The notes under the pieces are model-generated. The model saw nothing but the letters and a program-made list of their open reading frames with translations, did not search any database and was not told where the DNA came from. The position numbers and the translations under genes are program-made. Source: Candidatus Poribacteria bacterium (GTDB lineage Bacteria; Poribacteria; WGA-4E; JAJDTR01). From it: 64,000 bases of DNA. The stretch lies in contig CBDCTK010000002.1 in the NCBI GenBank assembly GCA_965222225.1, forward strand, positions 4,096,001-4,160,000, read 5' to 3'. Each line of letters begins with the position of its first letter. The stretch's first letter is position 1. Positions 11,404-52,426 of the stretch are shown piece after piece.

Positions 11404-11438
11404 GATTTCTATCGCACTCGCTATCCGCTCGCTTGATC
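11404..11438 (-). repeat. 35-bp GATC micro-element inside a GTAG hairpin
   Basis: GATTTCTATCGCACTCGCTATCCGCTCGCTTGATC flanked by GCGGGGCAAGGG and CCCGCCTAC. Confidence 0.75.
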
Positions 11439-12556: not shown

Positions 12557-12639
12557 ATGTGATTTCTGTACAAGGGGCCTCGGTAAGGGGGCGCGAGGCA
12601 CTTCTCGCTCGAATTGGATTTCAAATCCCGATTTCCTAA

Positions 12640-13815: not shown

Positions 13816-13950
13816 AACCGAATCCATAGGATTGACGGTACCTCTAACGTTGGAATGCCTCATAGGCTTGGTGTATAGCGGAATCGAACCGGAGACATCT
13901 TTCGTGTTTCACGCCCCAAATCTCAATCTTTAACACAAAGGAAGTAATCA

Positions 13951-15501
13951 ATGCAATTTGACTACATCATCCAAGGCGGGAACGTTGTAGACGGTACCGG
14001 CAAACGTGACCCGTTCCCAGCGGATGTCGGAGTCGTTCAGAACGAAATTGCCGCTATCGGGAAACTTGATGCCGCACAGGCGAGACGTATAATTTATGCA
14101 CAGGGCAAAGTTGTCAGTCCGGGGTTTATCGACGTTCACATTCATTCCGAGATTGCTCTATTGGGTGGAAGGGACCAAATGGGGAGTGTCCGTCAGGGGG
14201 TAACGACGCAACTTAGCGCACCCGACGGTTTTGGATGGGCACCTCTTCCCCCAAAACAGATAAGAGAGCTATGGCATTACACCCAGTTTGCTTACGGGGA
14301 TGCAGAACTTTCGTTCGATTGGAAGTGTGCCAAGGATTACCTGGGTATTTTTCCGGGGAACATTCCCGCGAACCTCTATCCACAAGTGCCGCATTGTGCC
14401 GTACGCTTGGAAGCGATGGGGTGGGATCCGCGACCTGCGACCGACGCAGATTTAACGCGCATGGAGGAAACTACCCGCGAATGGTTGGAGGCGGGGGCAG
14501 GTTGTCTCTGTCTGGGGCTTGACTATCAGCCTAGCGCGAACGCGGACCTTAGGGAACTTGTGACGCTGTCAAAACTTGCCGCCTCCTATGGCGCGATATA
14601 TGCCGCGCATATCCGTTACCAGCAGATTGGTCGAAAGAGAGCCTGGGAAGAGACTATCGAGTTGGCTAAGCAATCCGGGATTCCCGTTCATATTTCGCAT
14701 GAGCGCGTGGATGCAGAGTCTGCGGAGTTGTTGGATCGCGTGGATAGCGAAGACATCGACCTGACCTTTGAATCCTACCTTTATCCGGCGGGAATGACGC
14801 ACCTCTCGATGATGTTGCCGCTGAGATTTCAGGTGGGAAACATGGAAGCACGGATGGAAGTTTTGAAGCAGCCGGAGACGCGACAAGAATCCCTCCCCCA
14901 CCTCCAAGAAAGCCTAGGAGAGCGTGGCGATCAGATTATCGGTTATACGGCTTCCGGTCGTTATATCGGCATGACGCTCGCCGAAGCAGCGGAGAGCGAG
15001 AATAAGCCGTGGGTAGAGTTTGCTTACGATCTTACGATTGAAGAAAACGGAGTAGAGACATTAATCTTCCCGTGGCAGACACCACGTGAAGAATTTCAGT
15101 CAACCCTGGATCAGACGGCGGTACATCCTCGAATGATGATTGCGAGTGATGGGGTTTATAACATACCTCACCCTCATCCCCGTGGTTACGGTTGTTTTGT
15201 GCAATATCTCGGGCGCTATGTACGTGAACGGAAGCTAGTCTCGTTGGAGGAAGCCGTATACAAAATGAGCGGATTTCCGGCAGAACGTTTCGGAATAAAG
15301 GACCGTGGGAGGATTGCCAAGGGGTTGGCGGCGGATGTGGTTGTCTTCGATCCGGAAACCGTTTCAGACCGTTCGACTTGGAAGAACCCGATAGAACCAC
15401 CCGTCGGCGTTGACTGGGTGTTGGTCAACGGCGTGCCGGTTGTGGAGGAGGGCAGTCTGACAGGAGCCTTGCCGGGACGTGTCCTGAGACACGAGTTTTG
15501 A
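13951..15501 (+). CDS. N-acyl-D-amino-acid deacylase-like amidohydrolase
   Basis: PGFIDVHIHSE, QGVTT, AHIR, HISH, ASDG, HPRGYG, GLAADVVVFDP. Confidence 0.88.
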   Translation: MQFDYIIQGGNVVDGTGKRDPFPADVGVVQNEIAAIGKLDAAQARRIIYAQGKVVSPGFIDVHIHSEIALLGGRDQMGSVRQGVTTQLSAPDGFGWAPLPPKQIRELWHYTQFAYGDAELSFDWKCAKDYLGIFPGNIPANLYPQVPHCAVRLEAMGWDPRPATDADLTRMEETTREWLEAGAGCLCLGLDYQPSANADLRELVTLSKLAASYGAIYAAHIRYQQIGRKRAWEETIELAKQSGIPVHISHERVDAESAELLDRVDSEDIDLTFESYLYPAGMTHLSMMLPLRFQVGNMEARMEVLKQPETRQESLPHLQESLGERGDQIIGYTASGRYIGMTLAEAAESENKPWVEFAYDLTIEENGVETLIFPWQTPREEFQSTLDQTAVHPRMMIASDGVYNIPHPHPRGYGCFVQYLGRYVRERKLVSLEEAVYKMSGFPAERFGIKDRGRIAKGLAADVVVFDPETVSDRSTWKNPIEPPVGVDWVLVNGVPVVEEGSLTGALPGRVLRHEF

Positions 15502-15510
15502 ACTGCGCAA

Positions 15511-16317
15511 ATGGTTATTGAAGAGATGTTGGGGTGTCTGCGAATTGACGGATGGTGTGTGGTACCGGATGTCATTCCTCAAGTTCAAATCGCCCCCATA
15601 CGCAAAAACGTTGAGGAAACGACATACGCGCACGGCATCAAGACTAGGGCAGATGGAGTGGCAGCCTGCAAGGGACTGTTGGCTTTTGACCAGTCGTTTG
15701 CTCCCTGTCTTGCCGACGAGCGTATCTTGGGGATAGCAGCGGCATTGTTCGGGCCACACGTACGAATCTCCTTTACGACTACCCACATCAACCTTCCCGG
15801 TAATGCGCGCGGCGGTTGGCACGCAGATTGGCCGTTCAATCAAAATAATGCGGGCCATATCCCTGCGCCCTATCCCGACGTCGTCATGCACCTGACTGAC
15901 GATATGGATGCTCTCGCCATTCACTACCGAGACGGGAGCTAACTTAATCGTGCCCGGCAGCCACCGAGCAAACAACAATCCCACCGGAAACAACGGAGTC
16001 GATCCCCTCGAACAGTATCCGGCGGAGACGCAGGCTATCGGAAATGCTGGGAGTGTGTGATGTTCGAGGGCCGGATGTGGCACGCCGCAGCAGTGAATCA
16101 CAGTGACAAACCGAGGGTCGGACTAGTCGTGCGATACGCGCCATGGTGGCTGAACTTGGACGTCTTGGACGTATTGAGGCCCGGTTCGGTGGAGCGAAGA
16201 CGCATGGTGGACGAAACAGGGCGACAAGATAATGAAGTCCTGCCGGTTCCCCTTCGTGTCTACGAGGCGCTCCCGGCAAACGTCCAGCCACTCTTCCGGC
16301 ACTGGGTGGAACATTAG
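15511..16317 (+). pseudogene. PhyH-family dioxygenase pseudogene
   Basis: WHADWP, then a frameshift at ~15897 (CTGACTGACGATA) into IWMLSPF...VPGSHR, a second frameshift at ~16057, then MWHAA..N..RVG. Short duplication LDVLDVL. Confidence 0.8.
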
Positions 16318-16385
16318 TTAAGTTTTTCGGCGCTTTCGCCACCTGTTACGATACAAAGATTGACAATTCGGGAAGGACAGAACCG

Positions 16386-17819
16386 ATGGCACAACCCAAT
16401 GTACTGCTTATCTGCACCGATCATTGGCCAGGACCGTTGTTGGGGACTATGGGACACGATCGGATTCTGACGCCAACGCTCAACGAACTTGCGAACAATG
16501 GCGTATGCTTTACGCGAGCCTATACCGCGACGCCAACGTGTATCCCGGCCCGGCGCGCCTTGATGACGGGCACTACCGCCCAAACACACGGAGATCGGGT
16601 TTTCAATGAATACCTCCCAATGGACCCCAAGCTGCCAACGATGCCGCAGACCTTCCGAAACGCGGGTTATCAAGCGTACGCAGTGGGTAAACTCCACGTA
16701 TACCCGCAACGCAATCGCATCGGTTTTGACGAAGTAATTCTCTGCGAGGAGGGGAGGCATCAATTCGGCGGGGTGGTAGACGATTTCGAGCGTTTTCTTG
16801 AACGGGAGGGCTACGCAGGATACGAATTTACCCACGCGATGGGCAGCAACGAATACTGTACGCGTCCGTGGCACTTGCCGGAGCATTGCCACCCAACCAA
16901 TTGGACCACGCGAGAAATGTGTTACACCATCCATCGCCGCGATCCCACCCGCTCAGCTTTCTGGTACTGCTCCTACACGGCACCGCATCCGCCGATAACT
17001 CCGCCGCGCGACTATTTCGACATGTATCAACGCCCCGGTGTAGACGAACCTGTTGTCGGCGATTGGGCAAAAAATTTCGATAAGCTGCCCTATGCGCTCA
17101 AGATGCATATTGAGAGAATCTCTGCCCCGAATCCTACCGAGACGATTCTGGCTCGGATGGGATTCTATGCGCAGTGCACCTATATTGACCACCAGATTCG
17201 ACTCTTGATTGGAACACTGCGCGAAGAGGGGGTATTGGACAACACAATCGTTATGTTGGTTTCGGATCATGGCGACATGCTTGGCAACCACAATCTGTGG
17301 GCGAAACCACCAATGTTTGAGTGGTCTGCGAGAATCCCAATGGTTCTTATGCCAACAGCCGATTGTGATCGTATCGGACACCACCGGAGAGATGATCGTC
17401 TAGCGGAGTTACGAGATGTGATGCCCACGCTGTTGGATCTGTGTGACATCCCGATACCGGGGACGGTGGAGGGGTATTCGTTGGCGTCGAACGAGCAGCG
17501 CGATCATCTTTACTGCGAACACTATGAAGACGAGAGAGCCATGCGAATGATTCGATCCGAGCAGTACAAACTCATCTGGTATCCAACCGGCAATCGAGTT
17601 CAACTCTTCGACCTCGAAAAGGATCCGCAGGAGATGTACAACCTCTCCGATTTCCCCAAATATGCGGATGTACGCGAGCGCTTAACAGATCTGCTAATTC
17701 AGAACCTCTATGGCCGCGATCTAGAGTGGGTAAAAGATGGACGGCTGGTGGGAGAGCCGGACAAACTGTTCGTGTCTTCACCAAATCGTGATTTGGCTGG
17801 GCAGCGCGGCTGGCGGTGA
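16386..17819 (+). CDS. Cys-type sulfatase (arylsulfatase/choline sulfatase-like)
   Basis: PNVLLICTDH, CIPARRALMTG formylglycine motif, GKLH, SDHGDMLG, LFDLEKDPQE. Confidence 0.92.
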   Translation: MAQPNVLLICTDHWPGPLLGTMGHDRILTPTLNELANNGVCFTRAYTATPTCIPARRALMTGTTAQTHGDRVFNEYLPMDPKLPTMPQTFRNAGYQAYAVGKLHVYPQRNRIGFDEVILCEEGRHQFGGVVDDFERFLEREGYAGYEFTHAMGSNEYCTRPWHLPEHCHPTNWTTREMCYTIHRRDPTRSAFWYCSYTAPHPPITPPRDYFDMYQRPGVDEPVVGDWAKNFDKLPYALKMHIERISAPNPTETILARMGFYAQCTYIDHQIRLLIGTLREEGVLDNTIVMLVSDHGDMLGNHNLWAKPPMFEWSARIPMVLMPTADCDRIGHHRRDDRLAELRDVMPTLLDLCDIPIPGTVEGYSLASNEQRDHLYCEHYEDERAMRMIRSEQYKLIWYPTGNRVQLFDLEKDPQEMYNLSDFPKYADVRERLTDLLIQNLYGRDLEWVKDGRLVGEPDKLFVSSPNRDLAGQRGWR

Positions 17820-17861
17820 ATCAGGTTTTGTAGTGAAATCAATAACTGTTAATACACTGTG

Positions 17862-17886
17862 GTAGGTTCGGTTTCCTAACCGAACC
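17862..17886. repeat. GTAG-type REP-like hairpin
   Basis: GTAGGTTCGGTTTCCTAACCGAACC. Confidence 0.6.
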
Positions 17887-17921
17887 GGTATTTATCCAGT
17901 CTCGTAGAGCGGTTGGAAAGA

Positions 17922-17956
17922 GATCTCTGTCGCCCTTGCTGTTCACTCGGTTGATT
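17922..17956 (-). repeat. 35-bp GATC micro-element
   Basis: GATCTCTGTCGCCCTTGCTGTTCACTCGGTTGATT between GCGGTTGGAAAGA and GCCTACC. Confidence 0.7.
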
Positions 17957-18059
17957 GCCTACCGAAATATGTGTAAATATGAATGGAATTGACTATAATC
18001 GGGAACGTGAATTGAAGGTGTGTCGTTTTGAAATGGTAAAGGTAGGGCTTACTTGATGC

Positions 18060-19071
18060 TTACTGCGCTGATTTGATGTCGTAGTCAACCAATTCTGCGA
18101 TCCCGTTAGGAGTTTCGATTTTGACAGGGCCGACACTTGGGGCGAGCCACATCGTTTGCAAATTCAGGTTTTGCATTAGACTCGGAAGGAGTTTTGTTAG
18201 TTCGCTGTTAAGCTCATCTTCCAAATGCTCAAGGAGCGCCTTGTTTTGGTCTTTAGTATAATCGCGGGCATTCCACGCGCCTATTTCATACACCAGCGTT
18301 TCGACAGGCGTTGCCTCTGCGCTATATTCAAGTTTCAGACAGTTCTCGAATCTGCCTGTGGACGTCGTTACCGCGGGCTCAAAAGACGTAGTTCCCCATA
18401 TACGTATGTCAACTTCAAAATCGTGGATGTAATTTCTAGGGATAAAGTTGTAGTACCCAGTTATCGTCATATGAATTACTTTTCTTTTTTGGGGGTAATC
18501 GGGTGGGAAATGCAGCAAAGTAAAATCACTGTGCTCAATGACCTTTATTTTGGAGTAAAACAGGAAGACTAAGACGCTGTCGTGTGCTTTTGGTGTGGTC
18601 CACACTCCGTTAATGTATACATGATGGCGTCTTCCAAAGCCCGAGGAATCGTCTTCGCTCTGCAGGACAGTTTGCCAAATAGCGTCGTTTATGTCGTTTT
18701 TCTTGTTTAGGAGGAAAATGCCGTCTGAGGCAACCACATTAGGTAGGTGATTTGATAAAATCGGGATGCTTGTCTGCGAGAGGCGGATTATAGGTGAAAG
18801 AATAGTAGGAATCGTGCTCAATAATTTCCGACTGGGCGACCTCGCGCGACCATTCGGAGCCGTCGGGATTTCGGTAAACCCAGCGGTTACCGAGAGACAT
18901 GGGAAAATAAATGGTGGACGCGTCGGCACTACTTTCCCCGCCCAAGGTTGTACCTCTGATGTTGTCGATTGGTTCGTCACCACAGCCAAAAGACAATAGG
19001 ATAACGGCAAAGGCAACAACTAGCGTAAAACAGCGAGGAACTGTAGGTGTAAACGGGGTGCGATGGAGCAT
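18060..19071 (-). pseudogene. Frameshifted tandem duplicate of the adjacent lipoprotein gene
   Basis: ORFs 18739..19071 and 18060..19019 together align with 19078..20091. One extra base at ~18740 (ACATTAGG versus ACATAGG in the paralog). Confidence 0.85.
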
Positions 19072-39470: not shown

Positions 39471-40457
39471 ATGACATTCAAAGCTAGACGCTTGTCCGTG
39501 GCAGCGCGTGTCATGTCTCTGTTAATACAGATGCACATTGCAGAAAACGGTTACGCCTCTCGCAGAACCAAGATCGCCTTCTCCTCTATGCGTGACGGGA
39601 ATTTGGAAATTTATGTCATGGATGGCGACGGGAGAAACCAGAGAAGAGTAGCGGTAAATCCGGCAAGGGACGAATATCCGGCATGGTCTCCCGACGGGAA
39701 AAAGATTGCGTTTGAATCCAATCGAAACAATGTAAACAAAGATCACAGGCAAATTTGGGTGATCGACGCCGACGGGAAGAACCCGATTCGACTGACGGAC
39801 GGGTTGGTGGACACTCATCCGGATTGGTCGCCAGACGGCACGAAAATTGTGTACGACGCCTATCTTGTTCCAGAGGACCATAATTTAGCACCCGGTGGGA
39901 TTGCTGTAATGGATGCGGATGGGAACAACAAGAGGTTAGTTAAGAATGCAAGAGGCTCACAATCGTCCTGGTCGCCCGATGGAAAACGAATAGCATTTAT
40001 CGCCGGTAAAAATCCTGGTGACGACTCTCAAATTTACGTAATGGATGTCGACGGACGAAATCGGTTGCAGTTAACGCATGACTTTGTGCACAAACGTTTG
40101 CCATCATGGTCACACGACGGGAAGCGCATCGCGTATGGTGGCGACAACGTGATTTGGGTGGTGGATAGCGACGGAGAGAATCCGAGGCAACTCACGTGGC
40201 ATGTTACGGAAGAACACCCTACATGGTCACCGGACAGCGAATCCATCGCGTTTCACTCTTTTGGAAGGGATCCTGGAATTGTTGGGATTTACACGGTGGA
40301 TGTAACTATCGGCGCTGTCGACCCTTTGCCAAGTGATCCCGGCTTCCAGAATTACTATCCGGATTGGCTCTATCCCGGAGGACTCTCCGTTTCGCCGGAA
40401 GGTAGCCAGAATACAATTTGGGGCAGGATAAAGCAATTGGCGGTCAACCTGCGGTAG
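39471..40457 (+). CDS. Secreted TolB-like PD40-repeat protein 4
   Basis: WSPDG repeats, C-terminal NTIWGRIK; AAGGAGG RBS. Confidence 0.88.
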   Translation: MTFKARRLSVAARVMSLLIQMHIAENGYASRRTKIAFSSMRDGNLEIYVMDGDGRNQRRVAVNPARDEYPAWSPDGKKIAFESNRNNVNKDHRQIWVIDADGKNPIRLTDGLVDTHPDWSPDGTKIVYDAYLVPEDHNLAPGGIAVMDADGNNKRLVKNARGSQSSWSPDGKRIAFIAGKNPGDDSQIYVMDVDGRNRLQLTHDFVHKRLPSWSHDGKRIAYGGDNVIWVVDSDGENPRQLTWHVTEEHPTWSPDSESIAFHSFGRDPGIVGIYTVDVTIGAVDPLPSDPGFQNYYPDWLYPGGLSVSPEGSQNTIWGRIKQLAVNLR

Positions 40458-40592
40458 TTTGCACACCGAATCGGTGAAATCGAAGGGATTGCGGCGTGCC
40501 GCTCCGCTACCTAGTTCATTGGTGGTACATCCGTGCGGCAAGCTTACCACATTAAAGGAGGGAGAACATGCGAATCAAGTCGATAAATAAAC

Positions 40593-41392
40593 GAGAGTAT
40601 TCACACAAAGATAGATAAGGCAATCTTCTGATACCGACGGAAGACCTCTGGGTTGGTCAAAGCAGTCCATAACTTCATGGCATTGTCCACCATCTCAAGT
40701 TTCTTGGATACTATTTTGGTGCGGCGTGTGAATCGTCCAAGATGATGGCGTGTATTGCTGTTATCACGTTCGACTGTTGCTGTCCCTGATTTCCCGATGT
40801 GATGACGCTCCGCAGGAAGTACCTTGGCAAACGCTTCCCAATTGTCAGTGTAATACTGGCAATCACTTAAGTGTTTCACTTTGTCGAATAGCCGTCTGAA
40901 GGTATCAGCATCACGACCACCGATAACCCAGGCAACGGTTTTGCCTGTTTCACGAGAAACTGCTTTGTGAATCCATCTTTTGTTTTTTTTGACCCGATAA
41001 AATGCCACATCTCATCAAATTCCAATTCACGGGTATTGATTGGAATCTCAGGCTCCGACAACAGGGCTGCTTCCTTTGCAGGCCATTTTTGAACAGTACT
41101 TGGCGATACATTAAACAAGTTGGCAATAGTGCCGTAAGACGCTTTTGCAAGCGAGTAGAGAATTACTGCAAAAGCACGCTTGATGGTGGTTTGAGGGTTG
41201 GTTCTCTCGTCTCCCTCAACGAAATTATAACCGCACGTTTTACAACGGTATCGCTGTTTGGAACGAACGAATCCGTTTTTCGTGACTTCCGAACTTTGAC
41301 AGTTCTTACAGTTTGACATAATATCTCCTTCCTGACCTTTCTGGTTAGTTAGAAGAATTATATCATAAATCTATCTATATGGCAATACTCTC
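40593..41392 (-). mobile_element. IS1-family insertion sequence (800 bp) in codon 9 of PD40 gene 5
   Basis: Terminal IR GAGAGTATT at both ends; 8-bp TSD AAATAAAC / AAGTAAAC with one mismatch. Confidence 0.88.
40601..41319 (-). CDS. IS1-family transposase (InsA-like 40876..41319 + InsB-like 40601..41008) joined by a programmed -1 frameshift
   Basis: Zn finger CKNC...QRYRCKTC, EFDEMWHF, A8C slippery run at 40982..40990, YTDNW, ERDNSNTRH. Confidence 0.88.
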
Positions 41393-42362
41393 AAGTAAAC
41401 TTCTGTTTTTCATGGGACTATGCACATCCTTGGTGAGTGGGGAGCTATTGGTGGGAACCGGATTTACCTCGCACCACAAACCACAGATTGCATTCACTTC
41501 TATAAAAGATAGGAATGCTGAAATCTATGTGATGGATGCCGATGGAGAAAACCAAATCAGGTTAACAAAACATGTGGCGAGTGACCGTCATCCCTCGTGG
41601 TCTCCCGATGGGGAGCGGATTGCATTCACTTCCAATAGAATTAGTATTGGCGGTGAAATGTACGTGATGGATAGCGATGGAAAGAATCTGATTAGGTTAA
41701 CAAATGGAGAATGGGACACAAATCCAGCGTGGTCTCCTGACGGAAAAAAGATCGCCTTCGAGTCCTCTCCAGCGAAAGGTAATTCTGAGATATACGTGAT
41801 GGATGCCGATGGAAGAAATCAGACCCGACTAACAGATAGTCCGAGGTATGACGGACACCCGTCATGGTCGCCCGACGGTCAAAGGATTGCATTCGTATCG
41901 CAAAGGGGTGGTTTCAGGATTCAAATCTACGTGATGGACAGCAACGGCGAGAATCAGACGAGATTAACACACGATGGCGGGAATAAGCGTGAGCCCTCAT
42001 GGTCTCCTGACGGGCAAAGCATCGCTTTCATGCTCAACAATTTTGCCTCGATTCAAATCTACGTGATGGATAGCGACGGCAAGAATCGGACAAGGTTAAC
42101 AGACGGAAGGCACGACTGGAGTCCAGCTTGGTCGCCGGACGGCGAGATGATTGCATACGAGTCGTGGATAGGGGAAGACTTCCTTAGCAAAATCCACTTG
42201 ATGACTGCCGACGGAATGTACCTCAAACAACTCAGCGACTTGCACGAACGTGGAGATTACGATCCTGACTGGTTTGATCCTGCATCGCTTGGTGTGACTT
42301 CCGTAGGCATCACAATTACAATCTGGGGCAGGATCAAGAGATTAGCGTTGAACCTCCAGTAA
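41379..42362 (+). CDS. TolB-like PD40-repeat protein 5; original start at 40568 cut off by IS1
   Basis: Removing the IS and one TSD gives MRIKSINKLLFFMGL... in frame. The present ATG 41379 lies inside the IS end. C-terminal ITIWGRIK. Confidence 0.8.
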   Translation: MAILSSKLLFFMGLCTSLVSGELLVGTGFTSHHKPQIAFTSIKDRNAEIYVMDADGENQIRLTKHVASDRHPSWSPDGERIAFTSNRISIGGEMYVMDSDGKNLIRLTNGEWDTNPAWSPDGKKIAFESSPAKGNSEIYVMDADGRNQTRLTDSPRYDGHPSWSPDGQRIAFVSQRGGFRIQIYVMDSNGENQTRLTHDGGNKREPSWSPDGQSIAFMLNNFASIQIYVMDSDGKNRTRLTDGRHDWSPAWSPDGEMIAYESWIGEDFLSKIHLMTADGMYLKQLSDLHERGDYDPDWFDPASLGVTSVGITITIWGRIKRLALNLQ

Positions 42363-44207: not shown

Positions 44208-45353
44208 TTGTTAGTTCCCAATTCCCCAGAACCGCGTAATAAGAGTATGCCAATGGAAATGAAATTTAACGTCGGAATTGTCGGAGCCCGTCGAGGCACT
44301 GGGCACATTCTACCGTTTAGCACGATTACTGAAACGGAGGTGGCTGCGCTCTGTGATTTGAATGAGGAAACACTTCACACCGTCGCGACAGCGCACGGCA
44401 TAGCCAAACAATTCACGGACTATGAGAAGCTACTTGAGGACGACGATATACAGATTGTGGTGTTGGCGACTCCCGAAAATCTCCACGTCCCACAGACCAT
44501 CGCGGCGTTAAACGCGGGAAAGCATGTAATCAGTGAAGTAACGGCAGCGGTATCGCTCGATCAGTGTGCGGAATTGGTTCGGGCGGTCAGACAGAGCCGC
44601 ACGAAATATATGATGGCTGAGAATTACTGCTACCTCAAATCAAATGTGTTGATTGGCAACATGGTGCGGCAGGGGATGTTCGGGGAAATATATTTTGGCG
44701 AAGGGGAATACCTCCATAGTATCAAATCGCTTCATCACGATAGCGAAGGCAATCCAACGTGGCGCTACTACTGGCAAGTGGGCGTGAATCGTTGTAACTA
44801 CGCGACACACCACCTCGGTCCTGTGCTGCAATGGTTTAACGAACGGGTCGTAAGCGTTTGTTGCTTGGGAACCGGTGTGCACACCGACCCTGAACACACA
44901 ATGGAAGATACAGTGATGATGCTATGCAAGACGGATAGCGGCGCACTCATTAAGATCCGAGTAGATATGTTATCCAACCGTCCTGCCAACTCGTACTACA
45001 GTCTTCAAGGCACAAAAGGCTGTTATGAAGGCACACGGGGCCTTGGAGATCAGCCGAAAATTTGGTTAGAAGAGTCAGGTCGTGGTGATGAGTGGATGCC
45101 GCTTTCAGCGGTTGAGGAAGAATTCCTGCCCGAGCGATGGAAAAACCCGCCTCAAGAAGCCGCACATCTAACCGATGGACTCGGCGATTACTTCGAGCTA
45201 CGGGACTTTGTGGATTGCATCCTCAAGGACACTGAACCGCCGCTGGATGTCTATACGGCGCTGGATTTTACGGTTCCGGGCTTGGTCTCTGAGCAGTCGA
45301 TTGCCAATGGTGGCGCTCCGGTTGAAGTTCCTGACTTCCGAAACATGGACTGA
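44208..45353 (+). CDS. Gfo/Idh/MocA oxidoreductase (GH109-like); start probably ~44260
   Basis: VGIVGARRG, ATPENLH, AGKHVISEV, MMAENYCY, GEGEYLH, YATH. Confidence 0.88.
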   Translation: MLVPNSPEPRNKSMPMEMKFNVGIVGARRGTGHILPFSTITETEVAALCDLNEETLHTVATAHGIAKQFTDYEKLLEDDDIQIVVLATPENLHVPQTIAALNAGKHVISEVTAAVSLDQCAELVRAVRQSRTKYMMAENYCYLKSNVLIGNMVRQGMFGEIYFGEGEYLHSIKSLHHDSEGNPTWRYYWQVGVNRCNYATHHLGPVLQWFNERVVSVCCLGTGVHTDPEHTMEDTVMMLCKTDSGALIKIRVDMLSNRPANSYYSLQGTKGCYEGTRGLGDQPKIWLEESGRGDEWMPLSAVEEEFLPERWKNPPQEAAHLTDGLGDYFELRDFVDCILKDTEPPLDVYTALDFTVPGLVSEQSIANGGAPVEVPDFRNMD

Positions 45354-45520
45354 CTTCAGCCGGAGCCCATTCATGGTAGTCGTATTTGATATTCAGAGTT
45401 CCTACCCATAAAGGTGGCCTATCGCCCACCATGTCTATTAAGGCACGCTTCAGACGGCAAAACACACGGATTTAAACCAGGAATCCGAGACAACAAAACC
45501 GTTTGTTCACTGACGAAAGT

Positions 45521-46510
45521 ATGGAAATGAATCTCCACGAAATGAAATGCAAAGCCCTGCGGGAAGAAATGAAAAGGCGTGGACTGAAGGGATATTAATC
45601 GTTAAATAAAGCCCAACTCATCCAATATATTTCAACCGGCGTGCACCCGATTCGGCACGTTGCCGAATCTAGTGTGCGGTCGAATAAAAAGGTACAGACA
45701 GTTATTCCAAGAGTTGAGAATCATTCACCTATATCTCCGGCAGCCACGCAGAATGGTTTTCCCATAAACCAAATCTTAGCCGGTGATTGTCTAAATGTAC
45801 TTCCTTCCCTTGCTAGCAATGTTTTTGATTGTTGTATCGCCGATCCCCCGTTCAATATGTCACAAAAAAAAGGATTGGGCTGGGCGTTCAGTTCCCATAT
45901 TACGATGCAGGAAGGGTGGGATATCTTCTCAAAAGACGAATATTCCCAGTTCACACTCGATTGGGTCTCCGAGGTTCTGAGAGTCGTCAAGCCGAACGGG
46001 AATATCTTTGTTTTCGGATCGTTTCACAGTATTTTTACGTTAGGATTTATCCTTCAGAACATATTTGATCGGCGCATTATCACCCAGATTGTATGGTATA
46101 AGCCGAATGCACAGCCCAATATCACCTGTCGCATGTTTACGGAATCAACTGAATTCATTATTTGGGCAGTTAACAATGAGCGTAAAAAGGCAAAAAACTG
46201 GACATTCAATTATCATGAGATGAAGGCGATGAATAATAACAAACAGATGCGAAACATGTGGGAAATCCCGCTGACGAAGCCGTCTGAACGAAAATACGGA
46301 AAACATCCTTCACAGAAACCGCTAGCAGTGGTTGAACGGCTAATTTTGGCGGGCACGAACGAAGACGACCTGATTCTAGATCCGTTTTCCGGAACCGGAA
46401 CAACCGGAATTGGTGCACAAAAGAACAATCGAAAATGGGTGATGATTGAGAAAGAAGAATTCTATAATCAGATTGCTCGACGGCGACTTGAAGAGTTAGC
46501 CGGCGAATAA
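45521..46510 (+). CDS. Beta-class amino-DNA methyltransferase (DpnA/M2.DpnII-like). An N-terminal Rho_N/HeH-like domain is cut off by an in-frame TAA at 45596; the MTase ORF 45641..46510 is intact
   Basis: Motif IV ADPPF precedes motif I DPFSGTGTTG. WYKPNAQPNITCRMFTESTEFIIWA and KQMRNMW...GKHPSQKP resemble DpnA. Confidence 0.88.
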
Positions 46511-46537
46511 TGAGTGTTCATTATAGAGGAGTTTGAC

Positions 46538-47149
46538 ATGCAAAGGCAGGAAGCACTCTCGAAACTGTCAGAGCTTATCAACCAAGACCTGCGTTTTCTT
46601 GCGAATCAATATGAAGTAACGGTTTTCAAGGGAGACAAACCAAATAAGGGTTGGGCATGGCACGTTCTTGAGCGTCATCTTAACTTACCAATCAACTCTG
46701 CTCAAGCACCAAACTTTGGTTCTTGGGAATTGAAGGTAGTTCCTCCGAAGTATCTAAAAAGTGGAAAGTTGACAATCAAGGAAACAATGGCAATTACGAT
46801 GATTGATGCCTACAATGTTGAACATACCGATTTCCAAGATAGCCATCTGTTCACCAAACTCAGGAAACTAATAGTTGCTGCCAGAATCTGGGAGAGTCAG
46901 CAGGAAGAACGATCTGTGCTTCATATTGTGACAACCTTTGACCTTGACAATCCCAAGATATACAGTCAAATTAAAGCGGATTATGATTTAGTCAGAGAGA
47001 CAATCCGCACGAAAGGTTTTTCGGCTTTGACCGGAAAAATGGGGGTATATATTCAACCAAGGACAAAGGGGCCTGGACATGGTAGTATGTCACGAGCGTT
47101 TTACGCAAGAACCACCTTCCTTAAGCAGTTCATTTTTCCGTCGCTTTGA
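46538..47149 (+). CDS. MutH/Sau3AI-family endonuclease
   Basis: NKGWAxHVLE, PNF...ELK, ETMAIT, YIQPRTKG and RAFY follow the MutH pattern. GAGGAG precedes ATG 46538. Confidence 0.8.
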   Translation: MQRQEALSKLSELINQDLRFLANQYEVTVFKGDKPNKGWAWHVLERHLNLPINSAQAPNFGSWELKVVPPKYLKSGKLTIKETMAITMIDAYNVEHTDFQDSHLFTKLRKLIVAARIWESQQEERSVLHIVTTFDLDNPKIYSQIKADYDLVRETIRTKGFSALTGKMGVYIQPRTKGPGHGSMSRAFYARTTFLKQFIFPSL

Positions 47150-47263
47150 AGACATAAAATCCGCGCAAAAACAGATGCGTTGAATTGACAATTAGAACAT
47201 ATTCCGTTTTGAATCACGAGGAATCGCCAACCCTACCAACAGACCGGCGACAAACACTGTACG

Positions 47264-49222
47264 ATGGACACAAAACCAACCTTCCAGACCATTACCCAGA
47301 GTAAAACTTCAACTCCAGTAGATCCTGTAGTAGCGGCGGAGGTTGGTCTAGAGAGGGGCAAAATCGGCAAACTGCATCTGGAGCGGAATGGCGCAGCCAT
47401 CCCACCCTTGTCAACACCGATTTTGTACCCCGTAGTTTCATTCATGACCGGTTCGACGCCGCGCGGCGGGGGTTTGTGGAAGTACCTACTTCGAGATTTC
47501 ATGAAGAACGATGTGCCGATGTTGTCGCAAGTCCTGCACTTTCTGGATTTCCCTATCAACGGTAAGAGTTTGGCGAAATGGCGAAGTAAAACCGTTCGTG
47601 AGTGGTATCGTGAGGTCAATGGACCATACGAAGCGCCGCTCCTGCTCGATTCCGGCGGATTCAAACTGCTTTATAACACGGGGCTAGATCTCTCTGAGTT
47701 CGGCATTAACGCAGAAACGGAAGCGGATGATATACTCGCACTCCAGGACGACATGGGTGGGGACATGATTGCTTCTCTGGACTACCCGCTTCCACCGGGG
47801 CTGGATCGATCGGAAGCCGAAAGGCGGATGAACCGCAGCCTGAAAAATGCCTTTAGGGTAGCGGAATGCATCGCCGATCGCCGTAACCCGCCATATCTGT
47901 ACATCTGTTGTCATGGACAATCCCGGGTTGACATTGAAGAGTACGTCCAGAAGGTTTTTGACAGGCTTCTGGGAGTCTTACCATCGTTTGGACTTGCGGT
48001 TGGCTCTCTCGTACCGCTGCGAGGAAAAAAGGATTCGGAAGTATTGGAGCGGATATTGGGAGTGGTAAACGGAATACCGGAATCGGAGCGACATCGGACG
48101 CCGATTCACGCCTTCGGCGTTTCAGGTGAACTTGCCCCCATACTCGCTTACATGGGAATTGATAGCTTTGACAGCACAAGTTACATTCAAGCTGCTCGCG
48201 GCCTCAACTATTCCCATCCCGAAACGCGGCGGAAGCAGAAAATTATGGAGTTAGACGAAACGGTGTGCACTTGCCGCATCTGCCGCGAGGTGTCGCTTGA
48301 TGAAATGCACCTTGCCCTGTCGGATGCAGTAAGTTATAGGAAGACTTCAACCGGGAAGTACAAGAGCGAATACTATGCCGCCATCGCTTTGCACAACTTT
48401 GAGATGGAAGCGGGGTTACTTTCCCGTATGAAAGAAGCTATTGAGAGCGAAGACTCGCTTGAAGAGTTGGTTCGTCACGCGCAGGTAGGACGAGGCATCA
48501 ATAGAGCAGTAGGCTGGCTGCTTGAGAATGATGAGATTTTTGCCAGTAAGATGGCGAAAACTGTCTTTGAGGCCACCGATTCACGGGGCAAATCCGCCCT
48601 TCCAATTGGGCGGAATCCGTATCAACTCGAACTCTTCACGGGATCCTTGACAGCGGAAGGAAATGGCGAGGAATCGCGATCAATCTCGCTCAATTATACA
48701 CCTGATTCCTTTTCCATTCCCGATGATTATGCTCCCCCTAAGGACAAAGACGTACTGCTGGTTATTCCGTGTGCCGGGAAAAAGCCGTATTCACTGTCGC
48801 GCACACACGCTATTGTCAATACCAAACTTCAGACGGCCTTCGGTGAAGCGGGAACTTCCATCCACAGAATTACCCTTTCGGGACTTTACGGACCCGTGCC
48901 GGAGGAATATGAATCTGAAGAAGCTGTCCTCCGATACGATTTTCAGTTGTCACCGAGAAATACCGCGAAAATACAGCTCGGTGCGGATCGGCTCTGCGCC
49001 TATCTGGAGAAGTATGCCAATCACTACAAGCTGATTGTCGGATACGCGACAAGCCAAGCTTATCGCAAAGTGTTTGAACTCACCCGATCCAGACGGTCAG
49101 ACTTTGTTTTGCTGCCGACGAAACCGAAACAGAATCGACTCACCGAGTTTTTCCGGCACGTTCACCTTGATGAACTCGTTGAGGTTTTGTCAACTGTAGC
49201 GCAACCACTGAGCAAAGAATAA
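47264..49222 (+). CDS. TGT/DpdA-like guanine transglycosylase fused to an ArcS/DUF5591-like C-terminal domain
   Basis: TPILYPV, LDSGGF, SLDYP, HAFG, GIDSFDS, Zn site CTCRIC...LHN. C-terminal VIPCAGKKPYSLSRTH and LSGLYGPVPEEYE...YDF. Confidence 0.85.
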   Translation: MDTKPTFQTITQSKTSTPVDPVVAAEVGLERGKIGKLHLERNGAAIPPLSTPILYPVVSFMTGSTPRGGGLWKYLLRDFMKNDVPMLSQVLHFLDFPINGKSLAKWRSKTVREWYREVNGPYEAPLLLDSGGFKLLYNTGLDLSEFGINAETEADDILALQDDMGGDMIASLDYPLPPGLDRSEAERRMNRSLKNAFRVAECIADRRNPPYLYICCHGQSRVDIEEYVQKVFDRLLGVLPSFGLAVGSLVPLRGKKDSEVLERILGVVNGIPESERHRTPIHAFGVSGELAPILAYMGIDSFDSTSYIQAARGLNYSHPETRRKQKIMELDETVCTCRICREVSLDEMHLALSDAVSYRKTSTGKYKSEYYAAIALHNFEMEAGLLSRMKEAIESEDSLEELVRHAQVGRGINRAVGWLLENDEIFASKMAKTVFEATDSRGKSALPIGRNPYQLELFTGSLTAEGNGEESRSISLNYTPDSFSIPDDYAPPKDKDVLLVIPCAGKKPYSLSRTHAIVNTKLQTAFGEAGTSIHRITLSGLYGPVPEEYESEEAVLRYDFQLSPRNTAKIQLGADRLCAYLEKYANHYKLIVGYATSQAYRKVFELTRSRRSDFVLLPTKPKQNRLTEFFRHVHLDELVEVLSTVAQPLSKE

Positions 49223-49228
49223 GTTGAT

Positions 49229-49723
49229 ATGTACCAATATCGAATGGCGAAAACAGACGATTTGAAGCGAATTGTGGAAATCGAGATGCGATCGGAGATC
49301 CAATCCAATCCATCTTGTCGAGAGAAGCATCAGATTGGCTTCGATACTCGCTACCGTTGGTGGACCGATTATTTTAATCGCACCAGCCACACCGAAACGA
49401 TCAGTGTTCATCGGACGATATACGTTGCTATGATTAAGCTGAATATTGTCGGATACATCGCCGGACATCTGACCTCTCAACCCGATCCGCAAGGCGAGAT
49501 TCAGTCGATGAACGTCCTGAAACCGCAGTGGGGAAAAGGAGCGGGAGTAAACCTGCTTAGGAATCTGGCAAGGTGGTTCAAGAAGCAAGGCGTCGCGTCC
49601 GTCTGTGTGCATGTGCCAGAGCATAGCCCATATAAGGAATTCTATGCCCAACACGGTGCTACGGCTGTGAATGACTCCCTTTGTCGGTGGGATAACATCG
49701 GCGAGGTGACAGAAGAATCGTAA
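49229..49723 (+). CDS. GNAT-family N-acetyltransferase
   Basis: VLKPQWGKGAGVNLL acetyl-CoA motif and EFYAQHG; 6 nt after the TGT gene. Confidence 0.82.
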   Translation: MYQYRMAKTDDLKRIVEIEMRSEIQSNPSCREKHQIGFDTRYRWWTDYFNRTSHTETISVHRTIYVAMIKLNIVGYIAGHLTSQPDPQGEIQSMNVLKPQWGKGAGVNLLRNLARWFKKQGVASVCVHVPEHSPYKEFYAQHGATAVNDSLCRWDNIGEVTEES

Positions 49724-49739
49724 CACCCATAACGAGATA

Positions 49740-50798
49740 ATGAGTAGCCCTTGGTTAATCTCTCAAAAAGCCGATCTAAGCTTTTTTTTCTTGCCCCTAA
49801 TCGTTATTTGGGTGGTAATATTCCTGTTGCCGTCTTCCGTCCTTGACCACGATTTGCCCTTGTGGGCATGGGCAGTATTCATCCTGGGATTTGATGTAAG
49901 CCATGTTTGGAGCACGTTGTTCCGAACCTACATCGACAAGGATGAAACCGAGAGGTTGGGACGAAAGGCGTGGTCGATCCCGCTCCTCTCTTTTCTTGCC
50001 GTTTTCGTCGTATGCTCATTGTCGATTGACGTGTTTTGGCGATTATTGGCATATCTCGCTGTTTCTCATTTCGCGAAACAGCAGTTCGGTTTTCTCGCTC
50101 TTTACCGAATCAGACAGGGAAGAATTAGCAAACGTATTCCGGACAAACTAGCAATTTACCTAGCGGTTCTTTATCCTGTCGTCTACTGGCATTTGGCTCA
50201 AGACAGGTCATTTGAATGGTTTGTGTCGGGCGATTTCGTGTTTCTTAAGCACTTCCAACTACCGCATCAAAAACTAATCATTACCAATGTATTGTACTGG
50301 ACGATCTTGGCAGGTTGGTTAATAGAGGAATGCATTACTTCTGTCAAACAGGTCGGCAAGATAGCTTATGGCAAAATCGCTTGGGTATTGGTCACCGCGT
50401 TCAACTGGTATTTCGGGATTGTACACTTCAACTCCGACATTGTTTTCTCCGTTACCAACGTAGTTGCGCACGGTCTACCGTATATGACATTGGTTGTTTG
50501 GTATAACATAAGGAAAAACGCGAGTTTGAATCAATCTGTGCCGATATTCCAAATGATTTTCACCGTTGTATTTGGAGCTATATTGTTGGCATATATTGAG
50601 GAGTTTGGCTGGGATATGCTGCTATTTAGAGAGAGAGGCGAGTTATTTCCGGCTTATTTCATCGGTCTCTTTGAAGGTTCACTGGCGATTGCTTTTGCGT
50701 ATGCGCTACTGGCTTTGCCACAAATCACTCATTACATTCTTGATGGAATCATCTGGAAAAACAGCGCATCAAATCCTCACGTGAAACAGATGCTGTAG
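49740..50798 (+). CDS. Polytopic membrane protein with conserved His motifs
   Basis: DVSHVWSTLFRTY, HFAKQQFGF, NVVAHGLPY, THYILDGIIW. Confidence 0.65.
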   Translation: MSSPWLISQKADLSFFFLPLIVIWVVIFLLPSSVLDHDLPLWAWAVFILGFDVSHVWSTLFRTYIDKDETERLGRKAWSIPLLSFLAVFVVCSLSIDVFWRLLAYLAVSHFAKQQFGFLALYRIRQGRISKRIPDKLAIYLAVLYPVVYWHLAQDRSFEWFVSGDFVFLKHFQLPHQKLIITNVLYWTILAGWLIEECITSVKQVGKIAYGKIAWVLVTAFNWYFGIVHFNSDIVFSVTNVVAHGLPYMTLVVWYNIRKNASLNQSVPIFQMIFTVVFGAILLAYIEEFGWDMLLFRERGELFPAYFIGLFEGSLAIAFAYALLALPQITHYILDGIIWKNSASNPHVKQML

Positions 50799-50826
50799 GC
50801 CGGTGCGAAGGAGAAAGAAGCACATT

Positions 50827-51549
50827 ATGGAGTTGTACCCGATTCGCCACGGTCAGTCGACCAACAACCGTGGAGATGCGCGTGTCTCTGATCCATCGCT
50901 GACGGAGCTCGGGAGGCAGCAAGCGACCAGAGCAGGACTGGCGCTGAGAAACCTGGGTATCACGCGCCTTTAATGTAGTGCGATGCTTCGTGCGGTGCAA
51001 ACCGCCACAATTGTTGGAGAACACTTGGGACATGCCCCGCATGTTTTCGTGGGAATTCACGAGTGGGGCGGCGTTTGGGAAGATCGGGTTGATGGTGGTA
51101 TGGATCAACTGCCGGGACTAACACGATCGCAGTTGCGCGATGCCTGTCCGACAGCCGTGTTGCCAGATGATGTAACGGACGAAGGTTGGTGCATTCAAGC
51201 ATTCGACGCCCACGAACTAGCGTACGGAGGGAACGATGAACAAATGCTGGGCTTGGCACACGAAAATTGCCTTCGATTCATCGCCCACTTGGACCACCAC
51301 CACCACGCAAGAGAACATGAAAAGGTCGGGGCAATTTTGCACGGTGGATCCGGATCAATGCTGCTCGGTGCATTTTTTGGTTTGCTACCAAATGAAACTC
51401 AAAATCGCTTCCCGCACAACAACGCCGGAATCACGAAAATTATTAGAACTCCGAAGTATACCCAGTTGCTTTATCAAAACCAGACCAGCCATCTATTGAA
51501 AGAGAGTGAATTCGACCTAGAAGCCAGTTCTCCCATGGTAATTTGGTGA
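50827..51549 (+). pseudogene. Histidine phosphatase paralog with a nonsense codon
   Basis: RHGQS motif; TAA at 50971..50973 where the paralog has TAT; the rest stays in frame. Confidence 0.88.
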
Positions 51550-51703
51550 AACGAGTACTGAATGACCAACACCGCCTAGACGGAATTATTTGAAAAAACA
51601 GTGCATCGAATCCCCACCTGAAACAGATGCTAAAATCCGATACCGTGATAAAGCAGTGCATGATTGCCGGAACCGTTTTCAAGCTGAAAGGAAATAACAG
51701 ATT

Positions 51704-52426
51704 ATGGAATTGTACCTAATTCGCCACGGTCAGTCGACCAACAACCGTGGAGATGCGCGTGTTCCTGAGACACCGCTGACAGAGATCGGAAAGCAGCAAG
51801 CGGACAGATCGGGACGGGCGTTGAAGAACTTGGGTGTCACGCGCCTTTATTTCAGCGCGATGCTCCGTGCGGTGCAAACCGCCACAATTGTTGGAGAACA
51901 CTTGGGACATGCCCCGCATGTATTCGTGGGAATTCACGAGTGGGGCGGCCTTTGGGAAGATCGGGTTGATGGTGGTATGGATCAGCTACCGGGACTAACA
52001 CGATCGCAGTTGCGCGATCTCTGTCCAAAAGTGGTGTTACCAAATGATGTGACAGACAACGGTTGGTGGTTTCCATCGTCTGTCAATGATAAACCGGTAT
52101 CGGCATGGGACTATGCGCAGATGCTCCAATTGATTCACAGAAACTGCCGTGGGTTCATCGCGCATTTGGAGCAACACCACGGTGGGGAAGCTGAGAAGAT
52201 CGGAGCAATTATACACGGAGGCTCCGGCTCAATCCTAATCGGAGCCCTGCTAGGGATGCCACTGCCAAACGAATTTCCAGAGCGCTTCCCACACAATAAC
52301 ACCGGCATCACGAAAATTCGAAGAACCCACGAGCACACACAGTTACTGTATCATAACCAAACCGGTCATCTACTGAAGAATTGTGAGTTCAGTCAAGAAG
52401 CTAGCTCCCCATTACTAACATGGTGA
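51704..52426 (+). CDS. Histidine phosphatase (phosphoglycerate mutase-like)
   Basis: LIRHGQS, SAMLRAVQTA, IIHGG, HNNTGIT. Confidence 0.9.
   Translation: MELYLIRHGQSTNNRGDARVPETPLTEIGKQQADRSGRALKNLGVTRLYFSAMLRAVQTATIVGEHLGHAPHVFVGIHEWGGLWEDRVDGGMDQLPGLTRSQLRDLCPKVVLPNDVTDNGWWFPSSVNDKPVSAWDYAQMLQLIHRNCRGFIAHLEQHHGGEAEKIGAIIHGGSGSILIGALLGMPLPNEFPERFPHNNTGITKIRRTHEHTQLLYHNQTGHLLKNCEFSQEASSPLLTW

Follow-up and report, generated by a model that had tools for sequence, protein, structure and literature searches.

To obtain insight into a compact four-gene locus of a Candidatus Poribacteria bacterium, a sponge symbiont, we asked whether its genes act together as one system of DNA modification and defence and what its largest product, a protein of 652 amino acids (aa) resembling tRNA-guanine transglycosylases (TGT), might do. 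The locus lies at 45521-49723 of a window of 64,000 nucleotides (nt), the whole stretch of DNA analysed (G000:C2:4096001-4160000, where G000 is the genome of the bacterium itself), and coordinates below are positions within this window unless a genome or locus is named. A preliminary description of the sequence had proposed that a DNA methyltransferase (MTase), a MutH-like nuclease, a TGT-ArcS-like fusion and a GNAT acetyltransferase couple restriction with guanine base exchange in one compact system; its observations were confirmed and its interpretation was supported in part. The fusion of a TGT domain with the ArcS C1 domain (DUF5591), here named TGTx, is a unit of its own. On the strength of its domains and of the gene neighbourhoods of its relatives we propose, with confidence evenly balanced between yes and no, that TGTx is a bifunctional DNA 7-deazaguanine enzyme, which would insert 7-cyano-7-deazaguanine (preQ0) and then convert it to a base like that of 2'-deoxyarchaeosine (dG+). 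The gene and its parts are as follows.

47264..49222, + strand: TGTx, 652 aa, a TGT-fold transglycosylase domain plus ArcS C1 (DUF5591), with no C2 or PUA domain
47360..48559, + strand: TGT domain of TGTx, approximately residues 33-432, placed by motifs and by AlphaFold2 secondary structure (residues 35-431)
48569..48670, + strand: disordered linker of TGTx, residues 436-469, with pLDDT below 50
48671..49219, + strand: ArcS C1/DUF5591 domain of TGTx, with the PC-X3-KPY-X2-S-X2-H motif at residues 502-515

Pfam searches of TGTx returned TGT with 59.6 bits and DUF5591 with 50.5 bits (residues 487-610). The protein ends about 40 residues past DUF5591 and gave no Pfam match to PUA or TGT_C2 domains, while a canonical ArcS control did match PUA-type models. 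TGTx stayed below the cut-offs of all curated models: 77.4 bits against a cut-off of 440 for ArcS (NF040592), 76.9 against 350 for archaeal TGT (arcTGT; TIGR00432), 31 against 306.75 for bacterial Tgt (TIGR00430) and 17.2 against 200 for DpdA (NF041059), with 16.2 bits, likewise insufficient, for the PADLOC DpdA model PDLC02807. On the same models haloarchaeal ArcS and arcTGT, used as controls, reached 843.8 and 617.9 bits, respectively. Since phage 9g DpdA matches no NCBIfam model, the DpdA models miss some DpdA subfamilies.

The TGT hallmarks that had been noticed in the 652-aa protein (DSGG, FDS and CxCxxC...H) were all recovered, and they vary little or not at all across 31 diverse full-length members of the family, 30-59% identical to the query. 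The TGT domain carries D129 (DSGG), D173, H217-G218, GSLVPL, D303 (FDS) and the zinc site C335/C337/C340/H377; all 31 members share D129, D173, D303, C337, C340 and H377, and 90% or more of them have C335, H217 and G218. The residues expected of the TGT superfamily are thus all found, and they align to those of arcTGT 1iq8. In line with the TGT literature, we presume the usual catalytic roles for the DSG aspartate, the substrate aspartate, the FDS aspartate and the CxCxxC...H zinc site. In the C1 domain the same 31 members have P508 and Y509 without exception and C503, K507 and S512 in at least 90% of cases, and across 15 members the ArcS motif PC-X3-KPY-X2-S-X2-H at residues 502-515 has invariant C, K, P, Y and S, with P and H conserved in at least 90%. 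This motif of ArcS C1 is defined in PMC10516641 and PMC5699537.

An AlphaFold2 model of TGTx built with 31 homologs (mean pLDDT 88.3, pTM 0.88) has two domains separated by the disordered linker 436-469, at which tblastn matches to homologs of Poribacteria clade B also break. The top Foldseek matches in the PDB were arcTGT (1j2b, with E 1.4e-18, and 1iq8) and bacterial TGT, and the N-terminal domain is a TGT barrel (TM 0.70-0.77 when normalised to bacterial TGT as target). The C-terminal domain matched AF0587 (2q07), a C1/C2/PUA piece in the PDB, with E 9e-4. In BFVD the model matched both relevant proteins of Vibrio phage nt-1, with E 7.5e-9 and, for its DUF5591 protein, 8.9e-5. TGTx shares with ArcS the plan of a TGT-like N-terminal domain followed by C1 with its catalytic motif, but it lacks C2 and PUA, scores far under the ArcS cut-off and keeps the DSGG, HG and GSLVPL motifs; the N-terminal domain of canonical haloarchaeal ArcS has no HG, no GSLVP and just 'DES' at the DSG site. 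From these retained motifs TGTx looks like an active transglycosylase fused to an ArcS catalytic core without the C2/PUA RNA-binding domains. With arcTGT and bacterial Tgt it has in common the TIM-barrel TGT fold, both aspartates and the zinc site, and it differs from them in its scores below cut-off, its separate clade, its other C-terminal half and its occurrence in addition to the housekeeping enzyme.

A separate housekeeping tgt, which the preliminary description had suggested looking for, was found in the same genome at G000:C2:426066-427100 (Pfam TGT, 549 bits). TGTx is therefore a second, extra TGT and not the sole tgt. To place it, a tree of TGT domains was built from 44 TGTx rows, two arcTGT, two ArcS, three T419 (haloarchaeal TGT of 415-419 aa), two T402 (a Poribacteria TGT of 402 aa), the bacterial-type TGT (bTGT) of the same genome and phage 9g DpdA. 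TGTx, T419 and phage 9g DpdA formed one group (support 95 in the Shimodaira-Hasegawa-like approximate likelihood ratio test, SH-aLRT) apart from arcTGT, ArcS and bTGT, within which the place of DpdA is unsure because its branch is very long (4.98). With the DpdA row removed, TGTx formed one group (support 73) that was sister to T419 (support 95). That TGTx is not a housekeeping TGT was borne out by the separate tgt, and the tree supports its membership of a so far unclassified TGT clade. A His is common to TGTx, T419, T402 and phage 9g DpdA where arcTGT and bTGT have Gln, and TGTx, T419 and phage 9g DpdA have an 'LV' dipeptide where arcTGT has VV and bTGT has LA, an observation rather than a test of specificity. 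The dipeptide at this site has been linked to the choice between preQ0 and preQ1 (PMC5699537).

The T402 protein was also noted in its own right. It is a TGT-superfamily protein of Poribacteria of genus g3 that have no TGTx (locus L021 in genome G017, 1093-2301, - strand, and locus L022 in G036), it has no CxCxxC zinc motif, it scores 69 bits for arcTGT and 28 bits for DpdA, and it forms a long branch of its own in the tree. This protein is possibly a further transglycosylase of the DNA type.

When 1.84 billion representatives were scanned, 554 proteins matched at E<=1e-3, fragments included, and 104 at E<=1e-30, and many of the matches were 560-700 aa long with both the TGT and the DUF5591 domain. 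In the contig scan 102 loci were confirmed; locus-level results here rest on the best 80 of the 102. Most TGTx loci belong to Poribacteria, and the others to Cyanobacteriota, Chloroflexota, a metagenome-assembled genome (MAG) of Symbiobacteriaceae, 13 haloarchaea, Thermodesulfovibrio and Kuenenia; full-length homologs are also carried by two haloarchaeal plasmids. Carriers that can be cultivated include Thermogemmatispora carboxidivorans PM5, Microseira wollei NIES-4236, Nostoc sp. MG11 and a Halorubrum strain. In a comparison of 41 related genomes, the one studied here included, strong matches were present in 18, and two more genomes matched only weakly, to T402. Some genomes contain two copies, and each of the haloarchaea G042 and G043 holds arcTGT, canonical ArcS, T419 and TGTx. 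Members of the family are currently annotated as 'tRNA-guanine transglycosylase' or '7-cyano-7-deazaguanine tRNA-ribosyltransferase', a tRNA-based naming that is probably misleading.

These data bear on whether TGTx modifies tRNA as a compact bacterial equivalent of the arcTGT plus ArcS route to archaeosine or a related base, which we regard as unlikely. Its best sequence and fold matches are indeed tRNA enzymes, namely arcTGT (1iq8, 1j2b) and bacterial TGT, with ArcS and arcTGT as the top NCBIfam models. Bacterial TGT needs no PUA domain to bind tRNA, and TGTx is fairly widely kept in Poribacteria (the 18 of 41 genomes above), at partly syntenic sites and among metabolic genes. On the other hand, TGTx comes in addition to a complete tRNA machinery, which is bTGT in this genome and arcTGT with ArcS in haloarchaea, its tRNA-binding C2 and PUA domains are absent, and it varies between presence and absence among congeners and between one and two copies per genome. 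Moreover, in three other phyla and in haloarchaea it recurs beside helicase and PLD genes, GmrSD_N and HEPN genes, restriction-modification (RM) genes and a deoxyribosyltransferase gene.

The neighbourhoods were counted at 32 loci outside Poribacteria with usable flanks; related loci are not independent, and the counts are descriptive. The suggestion that homologs might recur beside defence genes held for relatives in other phyla, which adjoin DpdJ- and DpdK-like genes, QueC, QueE and QueD, YhhQ, and GmrSD_N with HEPN. A DpdJ-like helicase was found within 6 kb of TGTx at five of seven Chloroflexota loci, one of nine cyanobacterial loci and three of 13 haloarchaeal loci. The Chloroflexota helicase, of approximately 1,300-1,460 aa, falls into one BLAST cluster with a haloarchaeal helicase that scores 180 bits on PADLOC DpdJ (locus L121), and four of the five helicase-bearing Chloroflexota loci also have a small PLD protein, whose counterpart at L121 scores 41.5 bits on DpdK. 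Two Chloroflexota loci further add a nucleoside 2-deoxyribosyltransferase, YhhQ/Vut_1 and QueC. In these two (L114 and L115, MAGs of Anaerolineaceae and Aggregatilineales, at about 10000-18300) the order is TGTx, DpdJ-like helicase, PLD, nucleoside 2-deoxyribosyltransferase, YhhQ (Vut_1) and QueC. These bacterial clusters are compact and Dpd/BRIGADE-like, although according to the BRIGADE preprint (10.1101/2025.09.15.676423) such systems are confined to halophilic archaea.

At the haloarchaeal loci, QueC-QueE-QueD lies directly upstream of TGTx in three cases and QueC-QueE in a fourth, and 12 of the 13 loci have within 6 kb at least one of these: such que genes, a triad of DUF6884, T419 and HATPase_c_3, or DpdJ-like/PLD or DruE-like helicases. 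An annotated Haladaptatus plasmid reads helicase, PLD, DUF6884, TGT, ATP-binding protein, AAA protein, TGTx and TGTx, with all three TGT-like genes named 'tRNA-guanine transglycosylase'. The Symbiobacteriaceae locus contains QueC and a second TGTx. As a separate observation, the DUF6884-T419-HATPase_c_3 triad adjoins TGTx in L120, L124, L126, L129-L131 and the plasmid locus L150. An hhalign comparison of DUF6884 with the C1 domain of TGTx gave a weak match in which the motifs line up (probability 13%, E 0.002, 112 columns), and the triad may be a second pair of TGT and nitrile modifier, split or differently fused. The Atlas also contains a cluster of 590 aa combining DUF6884 and TGT (score 0.82), which serves as a lead only.

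Eight of the nine cyanobacterial loci (L100-L103, L105, L108, L109, L111) present TGTx followed by a GmrSD_N/DUF262 protein (PADLOC NsnA, 207 bits) and then by a HEPN protein of the MAE_28990 type; the Spirulina locus has GmrSD_N and HEPN plus the DpdJ-like helicase. The DUF262 protein could be a DpdB-like helper or a restriction component; DpdB has a DGQQR ParB-like domain (PMC10164549). As GmrSD_N is a domain of the type IV restriction kind, this arrangement also speaks for a different role, in which TGTx would be a defence effector against invading nucleic acid, exchanging or removing 7-deazaguanines of phage DNA or swapping bases in phage DNA or tRNA, or else a mere reader or converter of bases made by others. 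Two further points favour such a role: haloarchaeal islands carry a separate T419, so that the TGT domain of TGTx could dock or flip a base as in canonical ArcS, and defence enzymes against 7-deazaguanine DNA do exist, namely the Dag glycosylases (10.1101/2025.10.29.685425). We nevertheless consider it improbable: the co-location with QueC, QueE, QueD and YhhQ points to preQ0 as a substrate for insertion, both catalytic aspartates and the whole pocket are invariant, and partner genes are missing altogether at most Poribacteria loci.

To assess which known systems come closest, we compared TGTx with the enzymes that form 7-deazaguanines in DNA. Such bases are known, in the literature consulted, from the bacterial Dpd system, which makes 2'-deoxy-preQ0 (dPreQ0) and 2'-deoxy-7-amido-7-deazaguanosine (dADG), and from phages, with eight derivatives including dG+; within this literature dG+ is reported for viral DNA only. 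According to PMC10516641, DpdA2 of Vibrio phage nt-1 expressed alone in E. coli yields 926-1607 dPreQ0 per 10^6 nt of DNA, and addition of the C1-only ArcS2 leads to dG+ in E. coli DNA. The pair resembles TGTx in joining a TGT-fold enzyme with a C1/DUF5591 domain that has PC-X3-KPY-X2-S-X2-H and no PUA, and it acts on DNA; it differs in being two separate viral proteins, whereas TGTx is one cellular polypeptide with no match in phage records at the sequence level. In a literature search whose scope left out most subscription journals, DUF5591 was named in one work, on the phage C1-only ArcS2, and no description of a cellular TGT-C1 fusion was found. Further works used for comparison were PMC6884629, 10.64898/2026.04.15.718813 and 10.1101/2025.10.29.685425. 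Judged by its sequence, TGTx appears to be a variant that is fused, cellular, without PUA and with an apparently active transglycosylase domain.

The bacterial Dpd system (DpdA/B/C with DpdD-K) and the haloarchaeal BRIGADE are related to TGTx through its relatives, which adjoin DpdJ-like, DpdK-like and que genes, and through the same proposed logic of preQ0 insertion followed by modification of the nitrile; in the Dpd system DpdA/DpdB act first and DpdC follows (PMC10164549), in parallel to the steps proposed for TGTx. The differences are that TGTx reaches only 16-17 bits on DpdA models, that its nitrile-modifying domain is of the ArcS type and not DpdC, and that neither DpdC nor DpdJ was found in the genome. 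The BRIGADE preprint (10.1101/2025.09.15.676423) reports islands of the Dpd-like type, carrying a 7-deazaguanine cluster, from halophilic archaea exclusively, and the words TGT, ArcS, DpdA and QueC occur nowhere in its main text. Here, in contrast, the same helicase cluster also adjoins TGTx in Chloroflexota and one cyanobacterium.

In the mechanism we propose, the N-terminal TGT domain would swap guanine in DNA for preQ0, supplied by the FolE/QueD/QueE/QueC pathway of the cell, and the C-terminal ArcS-C1 domain would attack the nitrile of the inserted base to give an amidine-type base (dG+ or an amine adduct). TGTx would then be the fused cellular counterpart of phage DpdA2 plus ArcS2 and a functional analogue of DpdA plus DpdC. 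We infer DNA as the substrate, preQ0 as the inserted base and the nature of the product; a tentative assignment to the DNA-guanine transglycosylases draws, indirectly, on the gene context of relatives, on the HG/LV pocket in common with phage 9g DpdA and on the long-branch tree grouping. The preliminary description had found no dpdC, folE or queCDE in the window, which holds for these families (dpdB was not searched), and had pointed to the rest of the genome for que genes. There, outside the window, we found FolE, PTPS/QueD genes, a QueE-like gene (82 bits, below the cut-off for the B. subtilis type), QueC and QueF, and preQ0 should therefore be available. In Chloroflexota, one cyanobacterium and haloarchaea TGTx would be the modification arm of Dpd/BRIGADE-like systems with a DpdJ-like helicase and a DpdK-like PLD nuclease; in the Poribacteria genome studied here it would be an orphan modifier without such a restriction arm.

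Several points weigh against a DNA 7-deazaguanine enzyme. By hidden Markov models the TGT domain is closer to arcTGT (76.9 bits) than to DpdA (17 bits), and tRNA is the substrate of both arcTGT and ArcS. The two trees were made by a quick search, and the grouping with DpdA hangs on that one very long branch and is unreliable. A full-length homolog was found in none of 50,697 phage records (tblastn, E<=1e-3), and a scan of IMG/VR gave three weak partial matches only, over TGT-domain residues 116-307 at 26-27% identity and none of them full-length. In this genome and at most Poribacteria loci TGTx is flanked by metabolic genes, with no DpdJ/K, DpdC or que genes adjoining, and the defence context is therefore borrowed from distant relatives that are 30-45% identical. 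Since haloarchaeal islands carry a separate T419, TGTx might there convert a base inserted by another enzyme. Bacterial DpdA needs the ATPase DpdB (PMC10164549), and no such partner was seen here, where dpdB was not among the families searched. Finally, phage ArcS2 made just 4-7 dG+ per 10^6 nt in E. coli (PMC10516641), a yield so low that it puts in doubt what C1 domains truly make on DNA.

The neighbourhoods within Poribacteria are specific to the clade. In clade A the MTase gene is present at 13 of 19 TGTx loci, the window counted. In clade B a QueD-like PTPS gene abuts TGTx at four of 12 loci, in at least two contexts; the same gene abuts TGTx at locus L080 of an unclassified MAG and lies 1.5 kb upstream at L069. 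In clade C an Fe-ADH gene follows TGTx downstream. The genome studied here has an ortholog of this PTPS/QueD-like gene, 127 aa long and with 81-86% identity, at G000:C2:4516250-4516558 (L162, 9203-9583, - strand), in the L080-type context and with the upstream synteny seen in G010, and with no TGTx beside it. A search of the genome for DpdJ gave at best 37 bits in generic helicase matches and no real DpdJ, and DpdC gave no match. The combination of DpdJ helicase, PLD nuclease and que cluster that marks a Dpd/BRIGADE locus was thus found only at loci of distant relatives and is absent here.

A wider claim is more tentative still, and we think it somewhat less probable than not to hold: that TGTx provides a widespread cellular route to archaeosine-type bases (dG+ or an amine adduct) in chromosomal DNA of bacteria and archaea by a single polypeptide, that Dpd-like systems (with DpdJ/DpdK or with DUF262 and HEPN) well beyond haloarchaea use it as their modification arm, and that in Poribacteria, as an orphan, it would make an epigenetic or protective mark to whose upstream side a type II RM cassette is repeatedly drawn. 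If the DNA 7-deazaguanine function is true, TGTx would offer a one-gene handle on whether cells place archaeosine-type bases in their own DNA, on what the C1 domain makes on DNA and on how Dpd-like restriction modules read such marks, and it would serve as a compact tool to label DNA with deazaguanine in a site-directed manner.

We then considered the locus as a whole, whose other genes are the following.

45521..46510, + strand: MTase, a beta-class N6/N4 DNA methyltransferase, CcrM/HinfI-like, with an open catalytic reading frame at 45641-46510 (289 aa)
46514..47149, + strand: protein of the MutH/Sau3AI fold, 211 aa, presumably the restriction endonuclease that pairs with the MTase
49229..49723, + strand: GNAT acetyltransferase, 164 aa (Pfam Acetyltransf_1, 39.8 bits)

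Calling of open reading frames (ORFs) gave four co-oriented genes on the + strand, as first described, separated by 3 nt (MTase/MutH-like), 114 nt (MutH-like/TGTx) and 6 nt (TGTx/GNAT), the last placing the GNAT gene 6 nt past the TGTx stop as had been stated. Occurrence in the 41 genomes makes it very improbable that these four form one system of modification and defence. Orthologs of the MTase (at least 459 bits) are present in 17 of the 41. In nine of the 17 (G000, G001, G005, G008, G009, G012, G015, G027, G037) the gene adjoins TGTx, immediately upstream, and the remaining eight, all of genus g3, have no TGTx in the genome; in six of these eight (G011, G014, G017, G026 with the nuclease gene split, G029 and G036) a MutH-like gene follows the MTase, in varied contexts. 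Conversely, G002, G004 and G006 of genus g1 and G021 of genus g4 carry TGTx, with no MTase gene, at the same sites of the chromosome. The slot between MTase and TGTx is occupied by the MutH-like gene in G000, G005, G009 and G037 and by an opposite-strand DUF6996/DUF6997 protein in G008 and G015 (PADLOC REase_II, 100.6 bits), contains a 37-residue MutH remnant in G001 and is empty in G012 and G027. Since the MTase/MutH pair occurs alone, TGTx occurs alone and the nuclease slot is variable, the MTase, of a CcrM/HinfI-like adenine type, and the MutH-fold nuclease are an ordinary, mobile and exchangeable type II RM cassette.

The GNAT gene behaves differently from both. The congeners G003 and G007 match the window at the enolase/GFO genes and then again from the GNAT start on; the MTase, MutH-like and TGTx genes are absent, and GNAT and the following orf352 are kept in place. 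A tblastn search of the GFO-GNAT gap of these two genomes for remnants of TGTx, MTase and MutH gave nothing better than E 0.22. In a rearrangement in G008, TGTx and GNAT stay together and orf352 has moved elsewhere; a homolog of this GNAT was not found at any TGTx locus outside genus g1. We had considered GNAT as part of the chemistry, for example in acetylating an amine adduct, and rejected this because the gene stays without TGTx and is missing at TGTx loci elsewhere. It belongs to the backbone and not to the TGTx unit, and the region consists of two independent units, the RM pair and TGTx, with GNAT as a bystander. The idea of one compact system was therefore not borne out.

The findings that would speak for an integrated system, apart from co-orientation and tight spacing, are the recurrent adjacency of MTase and TGTx and the RNA data. 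At least three chromosomal contexts (f1 genus g1, f3 genus g4 and G037) have the MTase gene as the immediate upstream neighbour of TGTx; the two genes also adjoin each other in the unclassified MAG locus L068 and are separated by 2 kb in Kuenenia. This recurrence may reflect a hotspot or defence-island effect or a functional tie. RNA-library contigs of X6, X9, X17 and X18, from two studies, cover the region (30 of 30 bins for X6, X9 and X17, and 26 of 30 for X18), and the MutH/TGTx junction is bridged by X6 record 18 and the TGTx/GNAT junction by X6 record 21 and X9 record 30. These contigs are a weak hint of expression, since they demonstrate neither a single transcript nor its strand and may stem from DNA carry-over. 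A scan of 45300-51000 gave 10 promoter-like sites against 6.9±2.2 expected and three terminator-like sites against 5.8 expected, which did not help in defining transcription units. In addition to the separability of the genes, the interruption of the MTase N-terminus in this genome, described next, also argues against an integrated system.

The assignment of the first gene as a beta-class amino-MTase was confirmed by Pfam N6_N4_Mtase (170 bits) and PADLOC MTase_II (251 bits) and by the translation, in which DPPF precedes FSGTGTT in the beta-class order. Among curated models CcrM comes nearest, although its 224 bits fall far short of the cut-off of 830, and among solved chains it is that of CcrM 6pbd (165 bits). 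The start given at 45521 is in frame, but a TAA at 45596-45598 interrupts the frame, which is open only from the GTG at 45641. The stop cuts a conserved N-terminal extension (45521-45640) of about 45 residues that is intact in eight relatives, with full forms of 328-384 aa, and that matched no Pfam family; the interruption may reflect a genuine truncation or a fault of the assembly, and the catalytic ORF is intact. The second gene was likewise correctly recognised as of MutH/Sau3AI fold, with 44.9 bits for Pfam MutH, 54.8 bits for the Sau3AI family model, a PADLOC REase_II match and a PDB match to Sau3AI (E 1e-5). The two have what marks a type II RM pair, namely amino-MTase motifs, an adjoining nuclease-fold gene and inheritance as a unit, their activity being predicted. 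They are like type II RM systems with a CcrM/HinfI-like MTase and a MutH/Sau3AI nuclease in motif order, fold family, coupling and solo occurrence, and unlike them in the truncated MTase N-terminus and in an Asn, by a weak alignment, at the first acidic site of MutH.

This Asn lies in 'PN[FA]GSWELK' in nine of nine MutH-like orthologs (window, L054, L078, L081, L092, L152-L154, L156), with ELK kept, and aligns weakly (phmmer, E 0.21) to the first acidic catalytic residue of H. influenzae MutH; the active site of the nuclease is possibly atypical. In G026 (L155, 7989-10076) a 425-aa gene, which the locus contains twice and which is probably an insertion sequence, interrupts the MutH-like gene.

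Two minor features of the surrounding DNA were also noted. Upstream of the enolase-family gene, at 39471-42362 of the window and in L024 and L027-L029, up to five PD40/WD40-like beta-propeller genes of about 330 aa each stand in tandem, in a copy number that differs among congeners. Downstream, at 50983-52426, lie two neighbouring ORFs of the histidine-phosphatase family. The match of the first ORF (188 aa) is confined to the C-terminal part of the profile; relatives carry one or two full copies of 239-241 aa, and the 188-aa ORF may be a truncated duplicate.

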